Of a DNA stretch of 64,000 bases, positions 1,905 through 51,722 are shown piece after piece. The first letter of the stretch is position 1, and each line of letters begins with the position of its first letter. The position numbers and the translations under genes were made by a program. This DNA is from Candidatus Woesearchaeota archaeon (GTDB lineage Archaea; Nanobdellota; Nanobdellia; SCGC-AAA011-G17; JACPIM01), in contig CAYSNL010000002.1 of NCBI GenBank assembly GCA_964432435.1, positions 18,454 to 82,453 on the forward strand, written 5' to 3'. The notes below the pieces were generated by a model, which did no database searches, was not told where the DNA came from, and saw only the letters and a list, made by a program, of their open reading frames with translations.

Positions 1905-2909
1905 ATGATAAAAGTAGATGGTTCATATGGTGAGTCTGGAGGTCAAATTTTGCGTAGCAGTCTAGGTTTAAGTGCTCTAACGGGTAAAAGTTTTGAGATA
2001 ATTAATATAAGAAAAAATAGAAGTAATCCTGGATTGCAGGAACAACATTTACAATGCGTTAAGGCTGTTAAAAAATTATGTAATGCAGAAGTTGATGGGG
2101 CTGAATTGTATAGTACAAAATTAAAATTTACCCCTGGTGAAATCAGCAAAAACAAATTAAAAATAAAGATAAACACAGCTGGAAGCGTTGCTTTAGTTTT
2201 GCAGTCTTTATTAATCGCTTCTTTAAATAATGATTTAAGAATAAGAATTGAAGGCGGAGGAACTTGGAATAAATGGGCTCCTTCGGTATTATACCTTAAG
2301 AAAGTTTTTGCTAAATTAATGGAAAAATTTGGTTATAGAATTGATATTAATATTTTAAAAGAGGGTTTTTATCCTAAAGGGGGAGCTTTAGTTGAGATTA
2401 ATGTAAAAAAATCAGATTTAAAAAAAATAGAGTTAGTGAATTTTGAGAAATTAAAAAAAATAACTTGTATGTCGGTTGCTACTACTGATTTAAAAAAAGG
2501 AAAAGTTGCTGAAAGACAAGCTACAAGCGCTAAGAATATTTTAGGGAGGAATATTGATTCAGAAATTCATGCTCATACTAGTTATGTTGACTCATTAAGT
2601 ACAGGTTCTGGTTTATTATTAAAGGCAGAGTTTGATAATACCATATTGGGATATGATATTGTTGGTGAAAAAGGAAAACAAAGTGAAAAAATAGGTGAAG
2701 AAGCTGCTGTTGGAATGTTAAGGCATTTGTTAGCTAAAGTTTGTGTTGATAATTTTATGTTTGATCAAATATTGCCTTTTTTAGCTATTGCTAAAGGTGA
2801 AGTGAGATTTTTAGATATGACAGAACATGCCAGAACTAATATTGAAATAATTAAAAAATTTTTAGATGTTGATTTTAAAATAGAAAATAAAGTAATAAAA
2901 GTGAATTAG
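1905..2909 (+). CDS. rtcA: RNA 3'-terminal phosphate cyclase
   Basis: 'MIKVDGSYGESGGQILRSSLGLSALTG' matches the RtcA N-terminal G-x-G-E-G-G-G-Q-x-L-R motif; ~335 aa. ORF-track start at 1866 is a TTG; the ATG at 1905 fits the family N-terminus better. Confidence 0.8.
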   Translation: MIKVDGSYGESGGQILRSSLGLSALTGKSFEIINIRKNRSNPGLQEQHLQCVKAVKKLCNAEVDGAELYSTKLKFTPGEISKNKLKIKINTAGSVALVLQSLLIASLNNDLRIRIEGGGTWNKWAPSVLYLKKVFAKLMEKFGYRIDINILKEGFYPKGGALVEINVKKSDLKKIELVNFEKLKKITCMSVATTDLKKGKVAERQATSAKNILGRNIDSEIHAHTSYVDSLSTGSGLLLKAEFDNTILGYDIVGEKGKQSEKIGEEAAVGMLRHLLAKVCVDNFMFDQILPFLAIAKGEVRFLDMTEHARTNIEIIKKFLDVDFKIENKVIKVN

Positions 2910-4390
2910 GTTAAATATTCTGCTGTGACTTTTCTGAAATGGTGTCCCATAATTGCTAGAGTAACTGCATCTGCTAATCTCACTCTATGATGCCTTAATA
3001 CTTTGTTAATATATTTCCAATATTCACTTCTATCCTTATCAAATACACCTTGTATAATTATAGACTTAAAACCTGCCCTAATATCACCCCATGATAAATG
3101 ATCGTAACCAACTTTAGTAGCATTCTTTGCTCTTTCTAAGAAAGTAAGCGCCCTATCGTAAAATTTTCCAGAAGAATATAATCTTTGCATTAACGTTCTA
3201 TAACTTGATACTAATCCATCTTTGTCAAGTTTTGGAACAAAATTTACTGTTCCATCGGTATTATTTCCTGTACCATTATCCAATATCCTGCCTTCACTTT
3301 CCAGTCTTTTGTATAGTCCTGTTCCCGGTATTGCGGTTAATAAACCCAACATTGCCGATGGTATCCCACTTTCTCTAATAAACTTTTCTTGTAAATCTGC
3401 AATATTTGGAGGATCATTATCAAAGCCCATTATAAATCCTGCCATGACTTCTATACCCTTTCTTTGTATTTGTTTTACTTTGTCTAATAGATTGTATCTA
3501 GTATTTTGTGTTTTACGTGTTTCCCTAAGGCTTGCTTCTACAGGTGTTTCTATTCCTATGAAGACTTTTCTGAATCCTGCAGTTACCATTTCTTCTAATA
3601 TATCGTCTGGTAGATTGGCTGATGCTTCTGTGAATAGTTTAAATGGATAGTCTCTATCTCTTTGCCATTTTGTTATTAGTGGGAGATTTTTTCTAATTGC
3701 AGGAAGATTTCCAATAAAGTTATCATCGACTATAAAAACCGAACCTTTCCAACCTGCTTGATAAAGTTGTTCTAACTCTGCTAGAAATCTATTAATTGGC
3801 TTGACTCTTGGGAGTCTACCATAAATCTTAGTTATATCACAAAATTCACAATCAAATGGGCATCCTCTTGAAAATTGAACTGACATTGAACTGTACCTAC
3901 CTAAACCTATTAAGTCTAATTTTGGCAATGGGACATTATCTAAATTTGGTCTTGCCTCTGCCTTATAGTGTTCTCTTGCTGTTCCATTTACTAGGTCTTC
4001 AAGTAAAGTCGGCATTATTGTTTCTGCTTCACCTTCAACTCTGTGGTCTGCTAATTTTGTAGCTGGTAAATGTGTTGATACAAATGGACCACCAAGAATT
4101 GTTTTTTTATTAAATCTTTTAGCTCTTTCAATGTCTTCAACTACTGATGGTTCTTGTACAGTCATAGCACTTATGAAAACAAAATCAGAATTTCTTAGTT
4201 CTTTATCTTTTAATGTTTTTACGTTTTGGTCTATGAGTTTAACTTTCCAATCATCATGAAAGAAACTTGCAATTGTTAGTGCTCCTAGTGGTGGAAAGGC
4301 AGAATCTTTTCCTTGAAAACTAATTGCATGTTTGAAGCTCCAATAGGTAGATGGTATTTCTGGGTATAATATCAAAGCTTTTTTGATCAT
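2906..4390 (-). CDS. B12-binding radical SAM protein (class B radical SAM)
   Basis: N-terminal cobalamin-binding-like domain followed by 'RGCPFDCEFCD' C-x3-C-x2-C radical SAM cluster motif; 494 aa. Confidence 0.75.
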   Translation of the reverse strand: MIKKALILYPEIPSTYWSFKHAISFQGKDSAFPPLGALTIASFFHDDWKVKLIDQNVKTLKDKELRNSDFVFISAMTVQEPSVVEDIERAKRFNKKTILGGPFVSTHLPATKLADHRVEGEAETIMPTLLEDLVNGTAREHYKAEARPNLDNVPLPKLDLIGLGRYSSMSVQFSRGCPFDCEFCDITKIYGRLPRVKPINRFLAELEQLYQAGWKGSVFIVDDNFIGNLPAIRKNLPLITKWQRDRDYPFKLFTEASANLPDDILEEMVTAGFRKVFIGIETPVEASLRETRKTQNTRYNLLDKVKQIQRKGIEVMAGFIMGFDNDPPNIADLQEKFIRESGIPSAMLGLLTAIPGTGLYKRLESEGRILDNGTGNNTDGTVNFVPKLDKDGLVSSYRTLMQRLYSSGKFYDRALTFLERAKNATKVGYDHLSWGDIRAGFKSIIIQGVFDKDRSEYWKYINKVLRHHRVRLADAVTLAIMGHHFRKVTAEYLT

Positions 4391-4494
4391 ATTACTTTTG
4401 TATAAATTTTTTATTTTATAAAGTTTGGCCTTAAATTTTTAAATAAGAATGCTATAGAAAACCTTAAAAGAAGCGTGTTGTTCTTTTATTTTAA

Positions 4495-4671
4495 GCCGGG
4501 ATGGCACAACCTGGTACTGCGCAGGATTGCTAGAACCTTTCTTAGGAAGAAATGTTCACGAAAGAGAGGCAAGGTTGTGATGATCCTGTTTCCGAAAGGA
4601 TATCCGGGTTCAAAAATAAGAACCCAGGTTTTTATTAACCCCTGGATTCATTGAGAGTCCCGGTCCCGGCG
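4495..4671 (+). tRNA. tRNA-Ser (anticodon GCU) interrupted by two introns (canonical 37/38 and T-loop)
   Basis: Perfect 7-bp acceptor stem GCCGGGA(4495-4501)/TCCCGGC(4664-4670), discriminator G. D-arm carries a GG. Anticodon stem CAGGA(4522-4526)/TCCTG(4584-4588) with loop TTGCTA|A. A 50-nt insert (4533-4582) lies between positions 37 and 38. Long variable arm (class II). T-stem CCGGG(4604-4608)/CCCGG(4659-4663), with a ~43-nt insert (4615-4657) inside the TTCAAA|T loop. Confidence 0.55.
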
Positions 4672-4756
4672 TTGTTATTTTTTAGATACACCTAGTGTGT
4701 TCAAGATTTATAATTAATTAAAATTATAACTGAAGGATATACTTTTTTAAGCTATT

Positions 4757-5761
4757 TCACCAAGCTCTTGCTCCATTTTTTAGCTTAAAATACTTGTATA
4801 CACCAAGAGCAAAACCCATTGTTACTATCATTGAAAATACGGGGTAATAAATAAATGCATATGGTATGGCTAGTAAGATATTACCTAACTCATTTAAATT
4901 ATTAATATTCATAGCTGAAAAAAAAGACGTTAGCAATATGTAAAGTAAACTTACTAGCAAAACAATATTTTCCGGTAAATGTGTAAATAAAGAAAAAAAG
5001 AATAGACTACTTATTATGCTATAGGAAAAAAGATATATAAAATAAAAAGGATTTTTTATGAATTGTTTTGGATGTTTCAAGAAACACTGCATCCCGCCAG
5101 AGGCCCACCTTATTTTTTGCTTAAACCAGGCTTTTAAGTTATTAGATTCATAAGTTTCGGCTGGCTCTAAGATTTGATCTAGTTTCCATCCCATTTCTTT
5201 TAAAGATAATGCCATATCCATATCTTCCGTAAGCATATTTTCTTGGAATAAACCGGCTCTTTCTAATAAATCTCTTTTTATAAACATACAACCACCCCAT
5301 AATGATATTGCTTTTATTGATTGGCTTAAGGCCAACATAGCGAACTCCACCCCTATCATCTGTGATATAAATCCTTCATTCTTTACCCTATACCTACAAC
5401 TTACAGCTCCTATGTTGTGTTTTTTTAACCTTGAAATGGAGTTGTTTATCATTTTCTTGTTTACAATGACATCAGAATCCAAAACAAAAATTATTTTTCC
5501 TTTTGTTCTTTTGAATGCTTTGTTTAATGATTTTACTTTACCTAAATTAATTTTATTATTAATAATACTAAATCTATACTTATTTTTTAAATTTTTTAAG
5601 ATATTTAATGTGCTATCTGTACTACGGTCGTTGATTACAAATAATTTAAAGTTAATATTCATACTATAATATAAGTTTCTTATGGTTTCAGCAATGGTAT
5701 TTGAATCATTGTACGTTGGTATTATCACCGAGATTTTTTCTCTAGTTAACTTTTTATTCAT
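4757..5761 (-). CDS. family 2 glycosyltransferase (dolichyl-phosphate sugar transferase-like) with C-terminal TM helices
   Basis: 'ISVIIPTYNDS' GT2 N-terminal motif, 'LDSDV' DxD; hydrophobic C-terminus. Confidence 0.8.
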   Translation of the reverse strand: MNKKLTREKISVIIPTYNDSNTIAETIRNLYYSMNINFKLFVINDRSTDSTLNILKNLKNKYRFSIINNKINLGKVKSLNKAFKRTKGKIIFVLDSDVIVNKKMINNSISRLKKHNIGAVSCRYRVKNEGFISQMIGVEFAMLALSQSIKAISLWGGCMFIKRDLLERAGLFQENMLTEDMDMALSLKEMGWKLDQILEPAETYESNNLKAWFKQKIRWASGGMQCFLKHPKQFIKNPFYFIYLFSYSIISSLFFFSLFTHLPENIVLLVSLLYILLTSFFSAMNINNLNELGNILLAIPYAFIYYPVFSMIVTMGFALGVYKYFKLKNGARAW

Positions 5762-9030: not shown

Positions 9031-10179
9031 ATGAAAAATAGATCTTTCAGTATATTTTTGTTAGTTATTATGGTTTTAGTGTTTTCAGTTTTTACTGTAG
9101 GGGCTATTGATGAGTCTAAAGGTGGTAAAGTTAGGGTTGTTGCTCATACAAATAAAGAGGTTTCTGATGGTTTAGAAAATGGTTGTAAAATTGTAAGAGA
9201 AGCTAGGACTTTAAAAGCATTAGTTTGTTCTGTTAATGTTGCCGATTCCTTAGGGTTACAAGAGGATATAGAAGTATTTACAATGGACTCTGGTGCAAAT
9301 ACGCAAATAAAAGCTGATTTAGTGCAGGCTTCTGGAAATAATGGTAATGGAAGGAAAGTTGTTGTTTTAGATACCGGTTATAATTATGGTCATCAAGAAT
9401 TAAGTTCCAGTTATTTAGGTGGTTATGATTTTGTTAACGATGATAATGATCCGTTTGATGATAATGGTCATGGAAGTCATGTAGCTGGGATCATAACTGC
9501 TGATGGTATCGATAATAAGGCAAAGGGAGTAGCACCAGGAACAGGAATAATCTCTGGAAAAATATTAAGCGCTTCTGGTTCTGGATATTTTAGTGACGTT
9601 GTTGCAGCAATCTATTGGGCAGTGGATGGTTCAGATGGTATTTATGGGACTGAAGATGACTTCAATGTGGATGCAATAAGTATGAGTTTGGGAACTTCGC
9701 AACCATATACATATAAAGGATTTTGTGATAGTGTTTTACCAGATTTAACAAATGCAATTAAATATGCAATAGATAAAGGAATCATAATTGTTGTTGCTGC
9801 TGGTAATAGTGGTAATGCAGGAGTTTCAATTCCAGGTTGTATTAGTTACTCAACAACTGTAGGAGCAGTAGACAAATATGATAAAATTGCTTCTTTCTCT
9901 GGAAGAGGAAAAGCTGTTGATATTTCTGCTCCTGGTGTAAGTTTATATTCCTCTTGGTTAGGAAATTCATATGTAACAGCAAGTGGGACAAGTATGGCAA
10001 CACCCGTTGTTAGCGGAACTGTTGGATTAATTAAAGTTGCACATCCTGGTTATACAGTAGTTCAAGTGCAAGATGCTTTGTTTAAGACAGCTAAAGATTT
10101 AGGAAAGACTGGTAAAGATACAAGTTATGGCTATGGTAGAGTAGATGCTTATGGTGCAGTTAATTATTTGTTACCATAA
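9031..10179 (+). CDS. secreted subtilisin-like serine protease (peptidase S8)
   Basis: Signal peptide; catalytic triad blocks 'VVVLDTGY' (Asp), 'HGSHVAG' (His), 'GTSMATP' (Ser). Confidence 0.85.
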   Translation: MKNRSFSIFLLVIMVLVFSVFTVGAIDESKGGKVRVVAHTNKEVSDGLENGCKIVREARTLKALVCSVNVADSLGLQEDIEVFTMDSGANTQIKADLVQASGNNGNGRKVVVLDTGYNYGHQELSSSYLGGYDFVNDDNDPFDDNGHGSHVAGIITADGIDNKAKGVAPGTGIISGKILSASGSGYFSDVVAAIYWAVDGSDGIYGTEDDFNVDAISMSLGTSQPYTYKGFCDSVLPDLTNAIKYAIDKGIIIVVAAGNSGNAGVSIPGCISYSTTVGAVDKYDKIASFSGRGKAVDISAPGVSLYSSWLGNSYVTASGTSMATPVVSGTVGLIKVAHPGYTVVQVQDALFKTAKDLGKTGKDTSYGYGRVDAYGAVNYLLP

Positions 10180-31951: not shown

Positions 31952-32617
31952 TTAAAGAATACATATACCTTCTTTCCCCTCTTTTTTGATTTTATACATA
32001 GCATGATCAGCTGTAGTTAATAAGGCATCTCTTATATCTTGAACATGATACCGATCTAATATTAAATCTCCAAAACCATTAACTTTACCTTTTTCTAGAG
32101 AACTTATTCCAGCACTAAAAGTAATTCCATTTACTTGATATTCTGGGAATATTATTCCAGTTGAACTTTTTTCATAAATTCTAGAAACAACGTGATTAGC
32201 TAATTTTTTACTAGCTTGTGGTAAGACTATAACAAATTCATCTCCACCAACTCTAGAAGCTTGATCATGTGGTCTTATTTGAGAAAGTAAACTTCTTGCA
32301 AATGCTTTCAAGATTTGGTCGCCTGCTTCGTGTTTATATGAATCATTTACTATTTTAAAATTATTAAGATCTAGGTAAGCAAGTGATAATGGTGGATGAT
32401 CTAGATTATGGTTTCTCATACTTCTTAGAATATTTTGAATTTCTTTTTCTAGGAATGTGTATAATCCTCTTCTATTTGGTATTTCGGTAAGAGGATCTAC
32501 AGTAGCCATTTCTCTATACATCATTAATTCGTGTCTAGTTACTTCAAGTTCATTTCTTAATCTAACTATTTCTCTTTCCAAGTTAGATTCCTGAGTTTCT
32601 TGTTGGTTGTTTGACAT
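31952..32617 (-). CDS. GGDEF-domain protein (diguanylate cyclase) with N-terminal coiled coil
   Basis: 'DPLTEIPNRRGL', 'LDLNNFKIVNDSYKHEAGDQIL', 'RVGGDEFVIVLP', 'SAGISS', 'ADHAMYKIKKEGKEG': all canonical GGDEF blocks, including an intact GGDEF. Confidence 0.8.
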   Translation of the reverse strand: MSNNQQETQESNLEREIVRLRNELEVTRHELMMYREMATVDPLTEIPNRRGLYTFLEKEIQNILRSMRNHNLDHPPLSLAYLDLNNFKIVNDSYKHEAGDQILKAFARSLLSQIRPHDQASRVGGDEFVIVLPQASKKLANHVVSRIYEKSSTGIIFPEYQVNGITFSAGISSLEKGKVNGFGDLILDRYHVQDIRDALLTTADHAMYKIKKEGKEGICIL

Positions 32618-40869: not shown

Positions 40870-40915
40870 CTTGTTTTTAGAAAAATTTATATTTATAACT
40901 CTTTTGATATTAAGA

Positions 40916-41695
40916 ATGATTAATTTTAATATTGACCCGGTACTTTTAAGATTAGGACCTATTCAAATAAGATATTATGGGCTTGTTTATGTTATTGGAC
41001 TTTTACTTGGTTTGTACATATTAAATAAAGCAAGGAAAAAAGGTATTTTGGATTTAAAAGATGGTCAAGAATATGATCTAATATTTTATATAATGTTGGG
41101 TATGTTGATTGGTGCTAGGTTATTTCATGTTATCTTTTGGGGTTTAAATTATTATATTAGTAATCCTTTAAAAATATTTTATTTGTGGGAAGGAGGAATG
41201 AGTTTTCATGGGGGTCTAATTGGTATTCTAGTAAGCGGATATATTTACTGTGAAAAAAATAAGATAAATGTGGCAAAACTAGCAGATGTTTTAACTTTAC
41301 CTGCTGTTTTTATTTTAGCCTTAGGGAGGATTGTAAATTTTATTAATCAAGAAATATATGGAACAATAACGGCTTTGCCTTGGTGTGTAGAATTTAAAAG
41401 CATAGAAGGTTGTAGACATCCTGTGCAACTTTATGCAGCTTTAGGTAGATTTATAGCTTTTTTTATATTATTAAAATTTGGAAATAAACATAAAGAAGGC
41501 TTTGTTTTTTGGAATTTTGTTTTTCTTTTTGGTCTAGGTAGATTATTTTTAGATTTTTTAAGAGAGGATATAAGATATCTTGGGCTAAGCTTTGGACAGT
41601 GGTTTAGCTTAATTATGTTAATTTTAAGCGGTTATGTTCTATTTAGATTTTATATGGAGGATATTAAAAAAGTATTTTCTTTTAAGAAGAAATAA
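40916..41695 (+). CDS. lgt: prolipoprotein diacylglyceryl transferase homolog
   Basis: 'IDPVLLRLGPIQIRYYGLVYVIGLLLGLYI', 'GARLFHVIFWG', 'PLKIFYLWEGGMSFHGGLIG' match Lgt signature blocks; ATG 40916 (ORF-track TTG start 40871). Confidence 0.7.
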   Translation: MINFNIDPVLLRLGPIQIRYYGLVYVIGLLLGLYILNKARKKGILDLKDGQEYDLIFYIMLGMLIGARLFHVIFWGLNYYISNPLKIFYLWEGGMSFHGGLIGILVSGYIYCEKNKINVAKLADVLTLPAVFILALGRIVNFINQEIYGTITALPWCVEFKSIEGCRHPVQLYAALGRFIAFFILLKFGNKHKEGFVFWNFVFLFGLGRLFLDFLREDIRYLGLSFGQWFSLIMLILSGYVLFRFYMEDIKKVFSFKKK

Positions 41696-42259
41696 ACCAA
41701 AGACTATAATTATTATACTTAAAATAAATGAATTAAAAAATAATTTATACGCAAAGTCTTTAAAAAATTCATAAGGGAATAAATTAATTAAATTATCTTT
41801 TGAAGGGTCTAATAAATATAAATCATTATTAAAGAGCAGTTTATGAAAAGTGTTGTTGAAAAAGTCCTCAAAATTTATAAAATAAAAAGATAAAATTATG
41901 ATTATTGATGTTATACCTGAAATTATGAGTGATTTTCCCAGGGTTTTATAGTTTAAGATTATTAGGACTATTAATAATACTATGATTATATACAATAAGA
42001 TTAATGTTTTGTATATTAGGTTCTTAACATCTTTTAAATGAAACTTTTCCCTTTCATTAAAGAAATCTGTTGTTAAATCTTTATTATTTTGGAAATAGGA
42101 GAACAGATTCTTTGTGTTTGTTAGTGCTAATTCTTTCGGTATGGAAATATTTAGTTTATCAAATTCCTTCTGATAGAAACTTAGGTTATAAATTAAAAGC
42201 CTAAAATTAAATAAAAAAATGAATAATACTAATATGATTATTAAAAGTGTTTTTCTCAT
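41639..42259 (-). CDS. polytopic membrane protein, unknown function
   Basis: 206 aa, 4-5 hydrophobic segments. Confidence 0.3.
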   Translation of the reverse strand: MRKTLLIIILVLFIFLFNFRLLIYNLSFYQKEFDKLNISIPKELALTNTKNLFSYFQNNKDLTTDFFNEREKFHLKDVKNLIYKTLILLYIIIVLLIVLIILNYKTLGKSLIISGITSIIIILSFYFINFEDFFNNTFHKLLFNNDLYLLDPSKDNLINLFPYEFFKDFAYKLFFNSFILSIIIIVFGLFLLKRKYFFNILHIKSK

Positions 42260-50249: not shown

Positions 50250-51722
50250 TTATATATCTAGCAATTTATCTTGTGTGTATTGTTTGCCTGTTTTTAAAGC
50301 AATTTCTGCCTTTTGTAGTTCTGATCCTAAGTCTAGAGCATGGGAGATCTCTGATAGAACATTGTTATTTGCTAGTTGTGCAATTAATTCTCCGGCTACT
50401 TTTCCTTCATACTCTTTTATTGGTGAACTATCAGTGTTTAAGTGAGTTACTGTAATTTTTTCATTATTAAGTTTTATAATAAAATTTCCTTTTGGATCTT
50501 CTTTAAAATTTACTAAATTCCCCAATGGACTTGCCTTTATTAATTCTTTATCTCTATATTTTTCTATTATGTCTTTTGCATCTGTCCAGTTTTTTTCATA
50601 AATATGTGCACTACCGGAAATAATTGTTAATGTTCCTAGTTTTAGTTGTGTTTCTTTTGAGATTTCTTTTACTATATTGCCCTGTAATCTTCTTAAGGCA
50701 AATGCATTTCTTGGCCAGGCTTCATACATGTCATTACTTCTAATATAGGAGGTCATATGTAATGTATCGTCTTGTACTAGGCAATGTACAAAATTAATGC
50801 ATGGTGGTTCATCTCCTGATGAATCTTTATCATAATTCCAGGTAAAAGCTATTGCGCTTCTTTTATGTGGTTTTTTCTTTAATAGATCAATTATGAATTG
50901 GATTTGATCGACTTTTGTTCCATCTTTTAATTCTGCAGCTCTTAATCTTTGTCCATATGTGTAGTTTACATCCGGAATTTCTAGATTGGTTGTTACTTGA
51001 GGTATGTATCCTTCTAATTCTTCTTTGGTAAATTGAAAATACTCTTCCCATTTGTAATTGTCTGGGTCTTCATCTGAAATTACTGTTGAGATGTTGATTA
51101 ATTCTTTTTGGTCACCGCCATATGAAGAAGCTTTAGTAGCACCAAACCTCATGATATTATAAAGAATTTCCAGCCATGCGCTGCCAGTTGTTCTTTCCCT
51201 TATTTTATGAACTGTTGGGTCTGATGGGAATCTTTCTGGAGCTTCAATTTTATTTTCAGGGAATGTTTCTGGTTCTCCATAACTTGGTTTTTTTTCAAGT
51301 TCTTGTATTTTTACAGATATATCTGAGGGAGTTTTTCCTCTCATATCTATTATTTCTACGTTATTTCTGAAATTATCAATTGCTTCTTTTGGGATCGCTT
51401 TATGTAATTTAGAGTTTTGTATTCCTTTGATACAATGTTCTTCATCTACGCCTTTTTCTTTTAGTGCTAATAATGCCTCACCTGATTTTGCTAGGTCTTG
51501 TCCTGTTATAATTAGATATCTGATATTTTTATTAGCTAAACAATTCCTTATAAGAAAGCTTATTCCTCCATTAAAGTATAGTTGACCTATTGCTGAATAT
51601 AGGTTAGAATCTAAATTATCTGCAATTATCTTTCTAGGACTCCATAAAGTAATTACACCAATATTGGATTCTTGATTTCCTAGGATTACATTCTCTTTTT
51701 CATATAAAGGCCAATCAAACAA
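50250..51722 (-). CDS. thymidylate synthase (ThyA)-like domain with ~190-aa N-terminal and ~100-aa C-terminal extensions
   Basis: Core 'PPCINFVHCLVQDDTLHMTSYIRSNDMYEAWPRNAFAL' matches the ThyA active-site Cys-to-R-S-x-D block; flanking extensions unassigned. Confidence 0.65.
   Translation of the reverse strand: MFDWPLYEKENVILGNQESNIGVITLWSPRKIIADNLDSNLYSAIGQLYFNGGISFLIRNCLANKNIRYLIITGQDLAKSGEALLALKEKGVDEEHCIKGIQNSKLHKAIPKEAIDNFRNNVEIIDMRGKTPSDISVKIQELEKKPSYGEPETFPENKIEAPERFPSDPTVHKIRERTTGSAWLEILYNIMRFGATKASSYGGDQKELINISTVISDEDPDNYKWEEYFQFTKEELEGYIPQVTTNLEIPDVNYTYGQRLRAAELKDGTKVDQIQFIIDLLKKKPHKRSAIAFTWNYDKDSSGDEPPCINFVHCLVQDDTLHMTSYIRSNDMYEAWPRNAFALRRLQGNIVKEISKETQLKLGTLTIISGSAHIYEKNWTDAKDIIEKYRDKELIKASPLGNLVNFKEDPKGNFIIKLNNEKITVTHLNTDSSPIKEYEGKVAGELIAQLANNNVLSEISHALDLGSELQKAEIALKTGKQYTQDKLLDI

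Follow-up and report, generated by a model that had tools for sequence, protein, structure and literature searches.

Does the segment between positions 4495 and 4671 of this DNA encode a working transfer RNA (tRNA) that standard searches pass over? The DNA is a 64-kb stretch of contig CAYSNL010000002.1 (all 64,000 nucleotides of it are henceforth referred to as 'the window'), and the segment lies on its forward strand, in a gap (4390-4757) that no open reading frame (ORF) of at least 80 amino acids overlaps. Judged from its sequence, we consider it very probable (roughly 90%) that a Woesearchaeota-type DPANN archaeon has here a functional tRNA-Ser(GCU) gene, with its exons in colinear order and with two introns of the bulge-helix-bulge (BHB) type that would be removed by protein splicing enzymes. 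The locus has a clear exon-intron anatomy, its joined exons form a cloverleaf, both of its intron junctions are compatible with BHB motifs, its exons are conserved among orthologues in which the introns turn over, and the surrounding genes are those of an archaeal host.

When the exons of the 177-nucleotide (nt) precursor body, which does not encode the CCA end, were joined in silico, the result was a class II cloverleaf of 84 nt, a tRNA-Ser(gct) according to ARAGORN. Exon 1 (38 nt, 4495-4532, + strand) reads GCCGGGA TG GCAC AACCTGGTA CTGC G CAGGA TTGCTA and supplies the 5' strand of the acceptor stem (4495-4501), the D-arm (4504-4520), the 5' strand of the anticodon stem (4522-4526), the anticodon GCT (4529-4531) and A37 (4532). 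Directly after A37, at the canonical position 37/38, stands intron 1 (50 nt, 4533-4582, + strand). It is followed by exon 2 (32 nt, 4583-4614, + strand), which reads A TCCTG TTTCCGAAAGGATAT CCGGG TTCAAA and holds A38 (4583), the 3' strand of the anticodon stem (4584-4588), the variable arm (4589-4603), the 5' strand of the T-stem (4604-4608) and T-loop positions 54-59 (TTCAAA, 4609-4614). Intron 2 (4615-4657, + strand) then interrupts the T-loop at 59/60, and exon 3 (14 nt, 4658-4671, + strand; T CCCGG TCCCGGC G) completes the molecule with T60 (4658), the 3' strands of the T-stem (4659-4663) and acceptor stem (4664-4670) and the discriminator base G73 (4671). As the initial annotation had proposed, the gene has serine identity, a GCU anticodon, these outer coordinates and two introns, and the acceptor (7/7), anticodon (5/5) and T (5/5) stems that it described were reproduced by ARAGORN in the spliced 84-mer, together with a T-loop of TTCAAAT. 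Its insert of 50 nt at 37/38 was likewise correct, and its T-loop insert of about 43 nt proved to be exactly 43 nt long and to lie at 59/60. The spliced product has the features expected of a class II serine tRNA, namely a variable region of 15 nt, the anticodon GCT and G73; the stem of the variable arm has only 3 base pairs (bp) and is closed by GAAA, and its shortness, like the mismatch in the D-stem (below), goes unmentioned in the initial annotation. The three exons are colinear within the 177 nt, and the gene is neither split nor circularly permuted. The segment is one of the few GC-rich islands outside ORFs in a window of ~29% GC, and when both strands of the window were searched in a generic way for a split T-arm with acceptor stem, only the tRNA-Ser locus and one spurious match in a protease ORF turned up.

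The ability of the junctions to form BHB motifs had been named by the initial annotation as a test of the gene, and we found that both can do so, each with a 3-4-3 core in which all four base pairs of the central helix are made. In intron 1 the central helix, assigned by hand and checked by script, joins TTGC (4527-4530) to GTGA (4577-4580), that is, U32-U33-G34-C35 to GUGA, with all four pairs formed. It is flanked by the bulges TA|G (4531-4533) and TG|A (4581-4583), by an inner helix of 6 bp (AACCTT, 4534-4539, with AAGGTT, 4571-4576) and by an outer helix of 6 bp, the exon side being closed by the anticodon stem (CAGGA/TCCTG). Intron 1 is a strict hBHBh' motif, and G34 and C35 are paired with the intron, as they are in canonical archaeal introns (PMC4090602). 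In intron 2 the central helix joins TTCA (4609-4612) to TGAG (4652-4655), that is, U54-U55-C56-A57 to UGAG (4/4 bp), between the bulges AA|A (4613-4615) and AG|T (4656-4658). Its outer helix is the T-stem (CCGGG/CCCGG, 5 bp), and its inner side consists of AT/AT (2 bp), an internal loop, GAA/TTC and CCAGG/CCTGG, which makes the motif a borderline case between strict hBHBh' and relaxed hBH. A cut after the second nucleotide of each bulge places intron 1 at 37/38 and intron 2 at 59/60, a position that in the T-arm is the geometric counterpart of 37/38 in the anticodon arm, both arms having a 5-bp stem and a 7-nt loop.

The comparative evidence comes from metagenome contigs that were scanned with a 23-nt exact pattern taken from exon 1 only, which leaves the scan blind to introns. 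It returned 106 tRNA-Ser(GCU) loci, from which 78 unique genes were parsed, three loci remaining unparsed. No intron is present in 35 of the 78 genes, 26 have an intron at 37/38 only, 14 have introns at both 37/38 and 59/60, two (loci L047 and L089) carry these two and another in the acceptor 3' strand, and a single gene (L103) has the 59/60 intron alone. At 37/38 the introns are 12-66 nt long and at 59/60 they are 30-112 nt long, and their sequences diverge widely. All four base pairs of the central helix are kept by 40 of the 42 introns of the first site and by 13 of the 17 of the second; every one of the 59/60 introns can form an inner helix, each from its own sequence, and in four of them the fold constrained to the BHB is also the unconstrained optimum. 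The exons tell of conservation: G73 is present in all 78 genes, and the spliced product of the window is identical at 81/84 positions to three orthologues without a T-loop intron (L082, L090 and L093) and at 76/84 to the intron-less orthologue L091. Considering this identity to genes without a T-loop intron and the specificity of the scan of the window, the tRNA-Ser architecture is, on sequence grounds, far beyond what chance would give. When 68 unique mature sequences were aligned, 99.4% of their stem cells proved to be paired, a percentage that is inflated for the intron-bearing genes because the parser picked 3' exon segments by complementarity. Compensatory changes occur in 13 of 23 pairs, among them T-stem and acceptor pairs that span an intron; the anticodon and D stems are fixed in this alignment by the search pattern.

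The orthologues show several further arrangements. The third introns of L047 and L089 (36 and 28 nt) lie in the acceptor 3' strand, 3 nt past the T-stem, with a 4/4 central helix and an inner helix of 6-8 bp, and make these genes triple-intron serine tRNAs. At the other extreme, the 37/38 introns of L005, L009, L016, L034, L035, L038 and others are just 12-15 nt long, keep the central helix and the 3' bulge and are too short to accommodate an inner helix. Such introns belong to the bulge-helix-loop type, a motif said to require a broad-specificity endonuclease. Seven genes (L019, L023, L028, L071, L079, L090 and L093) with 37/38 introns of 54-58 nt have in common the pattern GTGTT-TGA ... GATGA-GAACA(C/T), whose flanks are complementary arms and which has the look of a kink-turn or C/D-like element; this pattern is not present in the window intron. 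In L103 an archaeal signal recognition particle (SRP) RNA (9387-9655, + strand; Rfam, 101 bits) ends 1 base before the tRNA-Ser(GCU) gene with the 59/60 intron only, which suggests that the two are co-transcribed or very tightly packed. Taken as a series, the same tRNA with 0, 1, 2 or 3 introns is a compact natural dataset on how DPANN archaea gain, lose and turn over BHB introns, and could be used as a training set for clade-specific BHB models.

Signals that would allow expression of the window gene can be proposed on both of its sides. A TATA-box-like sequence, CTTAAAAG (4463-4470, + strand), lies at -32 to -25, directly preceded by the purine-rich TAGAAAAC (4454-4461, + strand), and is a putative archaeal promoter; a T6 run (4678-4683, + strand) downstream is a putative archaeal terminator. 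Among the orthologues a TTTAAAA-like box stands at a matching distance (-33 to -26) and is the sole information peak upstream of the genes, apart from the last bases before them, and a run of at least 4 T occurs within 25 nt downstream in 51 of the 78. The upstream box and the T6 run would thus fit an archaeal promoter and terminator. In the pathway that we envisage, transcription would start from a TATA/BRE (B recognition element)-type promoter ~30 nt upstream and end at the downstream T-run, and RNase P and RNase Z would trim the ends of the precursor. EndA would recognise the BHB at each exon-intron boundary and cut after the second nucleotide of each 3-nt bulge, which would release the 50-nt intron from 37/38 and the 43-nt intron from 59/60. 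An RtcB-type ligase would then join the three exons through their 2',3'-cyclic phosphate and 5'-OH ends, and CCA would be added afterwards.

The tRNA-Ser gene has a companion in the window. Between the genes for RNase HII and RtcA lies another GC-rich island, through which we came upon an initiator-like tRNA-Met(CAU) gene (1668-1818, - strand). Its spliced product of 75 nt is called tRNA-Met(cat) by ARAGORN and resembles archaeal initiators in its A1:U72 pair and in an anticodon stem with three G-C pairs (GGG/CCC). The gene has no intron at 37/38 and is interrupted by three non-canonical ones, at 15/16 (29 nt, 1803-1775), 53/54 (22 nt, 1734-1713) and 59/60 (25 nt, 1706-1682), all on the - strand. 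All three introns have a 4/4 central helix. At 59/60 it is joined by a 7-bp inner helix and by an outer helix of 5 bp that forms only once the 53/54 intron is gone; the introns at 15/16 and 53/54, whose inner helices measure 5 and 4 bp, respectively, have essentially no outer helix and are of the HBh' type. The introns of this gene may need to be removed in order. A D-loop intron of 31 nt (giving a 73-nt product) was tried and rejected for want of a BHB; the 29-nt parse at 15/16 has the central (4/4) and inner (5 bp) helices just described and leaves the 75-nt product with a 4-bp D-stem. With a second multi-intron tRNA in the window, the organism must be able to splice such genes. The relaxed-specificity endonuclease that the initial annotation drew from the two-intron tRNA-Ser is not implied by that gene alone, intron 1 being strict and intron 2 keeping the 3-4-3 core; such an enzyme is plausible for the organism by way of the tRNA-Met introns at 15/16 and 53/54, which lack an outer helix, and it is tRNA-Met, more than tRNA-Ser, that argues for an endonuclease accepting relaxed motifs.

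The suspicion that default scans overlook the tRNA-Ser gene was borne out. ARAGORN reported 0 tRNA genes in the unspliced 64-kb window, with or without its intron option, and an Rfam search was empty at gathering scores and still without a tRNA match when the threshold was relaxed to E<=5. These negatives show that the gene is hidden and are in themselves no evidence for it. When the T-loop intron alone was removed, ARAGORN -i detected the gene and placed the remaining intron as 41 nt at '39/40'; we rejected this placement for its poor anticodon stem, the BHB defining an intron of 50 nt at 37/38. The same blindness extends to the orthologues, in that the Rfam tRNA model (gathering score 29) gives the intron-less L091 and L029 54.5 and 55.9 bits, respectively, and misses the intron-bearing L082, L094 and L016 as well as the 59/60-intron gene of L103. 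The BHB models of current tRNAscan-SE are derived from introns of Crenarchaeota/Euryarchaeota and Thaumarchaeota. For the thaumarchaeal introns, tRNAscan-SE 2.0 required a clade-specific BHB model to find them (PMC8450103). A genome annotated with ARAGORN or the Rfam tRNA model would seem to be without a decoder for AGY serine codons and, the neighbouring tRNA-Met being hidden likewise, without an initiator tRNA, and hidden genes of this kind contribute to the common impression that DPANN tRNA sets are incomplete.

Several features of the locus weigh against a functional, spliced tRNA-Ser(GCU) gene. That the gene is transcribed, that its introns are in fact cut out and its exons ligated, and which enzymes do so are parts of the reading that we infer. 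Pfam and NCBIfam searches of all window ORFs with at least 150 amino acids detected neither EndA nor RtcB, and EndA was not found in several smaller ORFs either. The D-stem consists of 3 bp and a C.C mismatch, the inner helix adjacent to the bulge of intron 2 amounts to just 2 A-U pairs that RNAfold leaves open, and the stem pairing of the orthologues is overstated by the parser in the way described above. The BHB conformations are, moreover, different from the minimum-free-energy folds: the anticodon arm reaches -11.9 kcal/mol when constrained to the BHB vs -18.2 unconstrained, the T-arm -15.0 vs -21.5 kcal/mol, and the whole precursor, with cloverleaf and two BHBs, -49.0 vs -66.7 kcal/mol. 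Unconstrained RNAfold gives neither the cloverleaf nor the BHBs of the precursor, and its optimum pairs the D-arm with intron 1, displacing the cloverleaf. We attribute these non-optimal energies to the limits that the nearest-neighbour model has for motifs bound by protein, and relied on the comparative evidence instead. The same energies can be read as the mark of a decaying pseudogene, in which two unrelated insertions stay unremoved and a functional copy is located elsewhere in the genome; the failure of ARAGORN and Rfam to recognise the unspliced sequence would agree with this, as would the possibility that a second, uninterrupted tRNA-Ser(GCU) gene lies beyond the 64-kb window that was surveyed. 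We nevertheless give a pseudogene only a slim chance, since both inserts sit exactly at 3-4-3 BHB sites and, once excised precisely, leave behind a faultless T-loop and anticodon loop, the exons match their orthologues at 81/84 positions with no stem-breaking changes, and 17 orthologues carry a 59/60 intron of different sequence and the same architecture. Promoter-like and terminator-like signals have also been kept, and the neighbouring initiator-type tRNA-Met, a kind of gene that is usually single-copy and essential, is interrupted likewise.

Even for a spliced gene, the T-loop intron could be removed at 57/58 or 58/59, since at the 5' junction (TTCAAA|AATAAG) the cut can slide within the run of A by sequence alone. 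The rule of cutting after the second bulge nucleotide, which gives 37/38 for intron 1, points to 59/60, however, and only 59/60 yields TTCAAAT, the T-loop of the nearest orthologues that are uninterrupted there, the other cut giving TTCAAGT; we therefore hold removal at either of the shifted sites to be very improbable. There is next to no prospect that one of the inserts is an element of another kind, such as a group I or II intron, an intron-borne C/D-box guide RNA of the sort known from euryarchaeal tRNA-Trp, or the scar of a mobile element that duplicated part of a tRNA. GTGATGA (4577-4583) does match the C-box consensus RUGAUGA, across the junction of intron 1 and exon 2, and CCTGGATTCAT, which forms the 3' part of intron 2, is similar to CCGGGTTCAAA in the T-arm. 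At 50 and 43 nt, however, the inserts are far too short for self-splicing group I or II introns, a D box (CTGA) is found in neither, Rfam has no intron or snoRNA match for them at E<=5, and the 4390-4757 gap contains no integrase, ORF or direct repeat of the tRNA 3' end. Two BHB introns, at 37/38 and 59/60 of a functional tRNA-Ser(GCU), very probably account for the locus.

The pairing of the D-arm with intron 1 raises the question of whether the intron does more than form its BHB. Within intron 1, AGGUUGUG (4572-4579) is a perfect 8-nt complement of CACAACCU in the D-arm (4505-4512), and complementarity of 6-9 nt between D-arm and intron recurs in about nine orthologues (loci including L016, L017, L034, L047, L078, L089, L094 and L097), where the two sides covary: C13 in the D-arm goes with TTGTG in the intron and U13 with TTATG. 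In a statistic that excludes the central-helix strand, the excess of complementarity is specific to the 5' region of the D-arm (z=4.5 vs shuffled introns; |z|<2 in four control regions). It is nevertheless doubtful that the 37/38 intron of this tRNA-Ser family, besides forming its BHB, pairs functionally with the 5' half of the D-arm. If it did, the pairing might keep the precursor in an alternative fold until splicing, or might provide an in-trans h'-like helix for the relatives with introns of 13-15 nt, which lack an inner helix. A common origin is probable for the matching introns, so that the pairing may be a single evolutionary event or a relic of the origin of the intron.

The gene content of the window points to its host. 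Its SufB falls in a 90% cluster whose members include proteins with the labels Candidatus Woesearchaeota and Nanoarchaeota. For Rrp41, every relative that has a name (<=90% identity) bears a Woesearchaeota, Nanoarchaeota or Nanoarchaeia label, and for both proteins the relatives at 89-90% identity are labelled Woesearchaeota or Nanoarchaeota. The window also has an archaeal gene set of proteasome alpha, SBDS, Rrp4, Rrp41, Rrp42, Rpo6, Rpp30 and an archaeal pilin. By these labels and genes the host is a Woesearchaeota/Nanoarchaeota (DPANN) archaeon of ~29% GC. Its genome is present in the samples SRR12113430 and SRR12113384. Between the two tRNA genes lies RtcA (RNA 3'-terminal phosphate cyclase; 1866-2909, + strand), which is part of RtcB ligation and repair chemistry and whose matches in a scan of genome contigs are Endomicrobia bacteria only, at 40-44% identity. 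The adjacent B12/radical-SAM gene has its three closest relatives at 86%, 66% and 62% identity, and in two of the three loci (L113 and L114) RtcA adjoins it or is one gene off. No tRNA-Ser or tRNA-Met was found near the B12/radical-SAM gene in these three loci, so the position of the tRNAs is not syntenic, and the proximity of RtcA to both tRNAs is probably coincidental. In L113, whose radical-SAM protein is the one 86% identical to that of the window, a LAGLIDADG_3 homing-endonuclease-like gene (3318-4067, - strand) adjoins RtcA, at the position that the triple-intron tRNA-Met has in the window. Bacterial-looking genes of the window lie at 2906-4390 (- strand), 31952-32617 (- strand) and 40871-42259. 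Named relatives of the B12/radical-SAM DUF4070 protein past 62% identity are Acidobacteria, which suggests that this gene may be of bacterial origin; other bacterial-looking genes are a GGDEF diguanylate cyclase and the lipoprotein-modification enzymes Lgt and Lit. An ORF of 490 amino acids (50250-51722, - strand) has MtrA-like, methanogen-type thymidylate-synthase and dihydropteroate-synthase-like matches, an unusual fusion.

How far does the window gene depart from what is known of archaeal tRNAs? The 59/60 position, multi-intron tRNAs and the disruption of tRNAs in DPANN archaea are all published, and the specific genes reported here are new instances. Their value is practical, for annotation and as a dataset of intron turnover, and leaves our knowledge of tRNA splicing unchanged. 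A limited literature search did not find the pattern of 59/60 introns across a tRNA-Ser(GCU) family of 78 orthologues or the triple-intron, initiator-like tRNA-Met. Published non-canonical intron sites of archaea include 53/54 and 59/60, and in Thermoproteales (for example Pyrobaculum and Thermofilum) tRNA genes have up to three introns, such as those at 25/26, 37/38 and 56/57 of the P. islandicum tRNA-Pro(UGG) (PMC4090602, PMC4033280, PMC8450103). The window gene resembles those of Thermoproteales in being a colinear BHB-intron gene, as these are, with introns usually at 37/38 plus non-canonical sites, that standard scans miss. It differs in its setting, the Thermoproteales having a crenarchaeal (alpha-beta)2 EndA with a Crenarchaea-specific loop and the present host being a DPANN archaeon of 29% GC, in whose window ORFs of at least 150 amino acids no EndA was found.

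The disrupted tRNAs already described in DPANN archaea, both in ARMAN-1/2, which have an epsilon2 EndA, and in the genomes of Kaneta et al., come closer, being from the same superphylum and probably the same phylum. The survey of Kaneta et al. (2018), which included Woesearchaeota RBG_13_36_6 and Pacearchaeota RBG_13_33_26, linked increased tRNA disruption and multiple-intron tRNAs to an alpha4-type EndA with an L3 loop, and noted that incomplete tRNA sets point to hidden disrupted tRNAs and call for manual searches (PMC5829648). Because disrupted tRNAs have thus been reported in DPANN archaea, Woesearchaeota among them (PMC5829648), the present case is expected rather than exceptional; unlike our analysis, that survey gives proportions per genome and not the tRNA-Ser gene itself (PMC5829648). 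Thaumarchaeota (Nitrososphaerota) likewise have BHB introns outside 37/38, some of their genes with several introns (PMC8450103), and differ in belonging to the TACK lineage. The canonical introns of Euryarchaeota, at 37/38 with a strict BHB and cut by an alpha4 or alpha'2 EndA, are exactly the type to which intron 1 belongs; whereas canonical euryarchaeal genes have a single intron at this site (PMC4090602), the tRNA-Ser(GCU) gene of the window adds to it a second intron in the T-loop.

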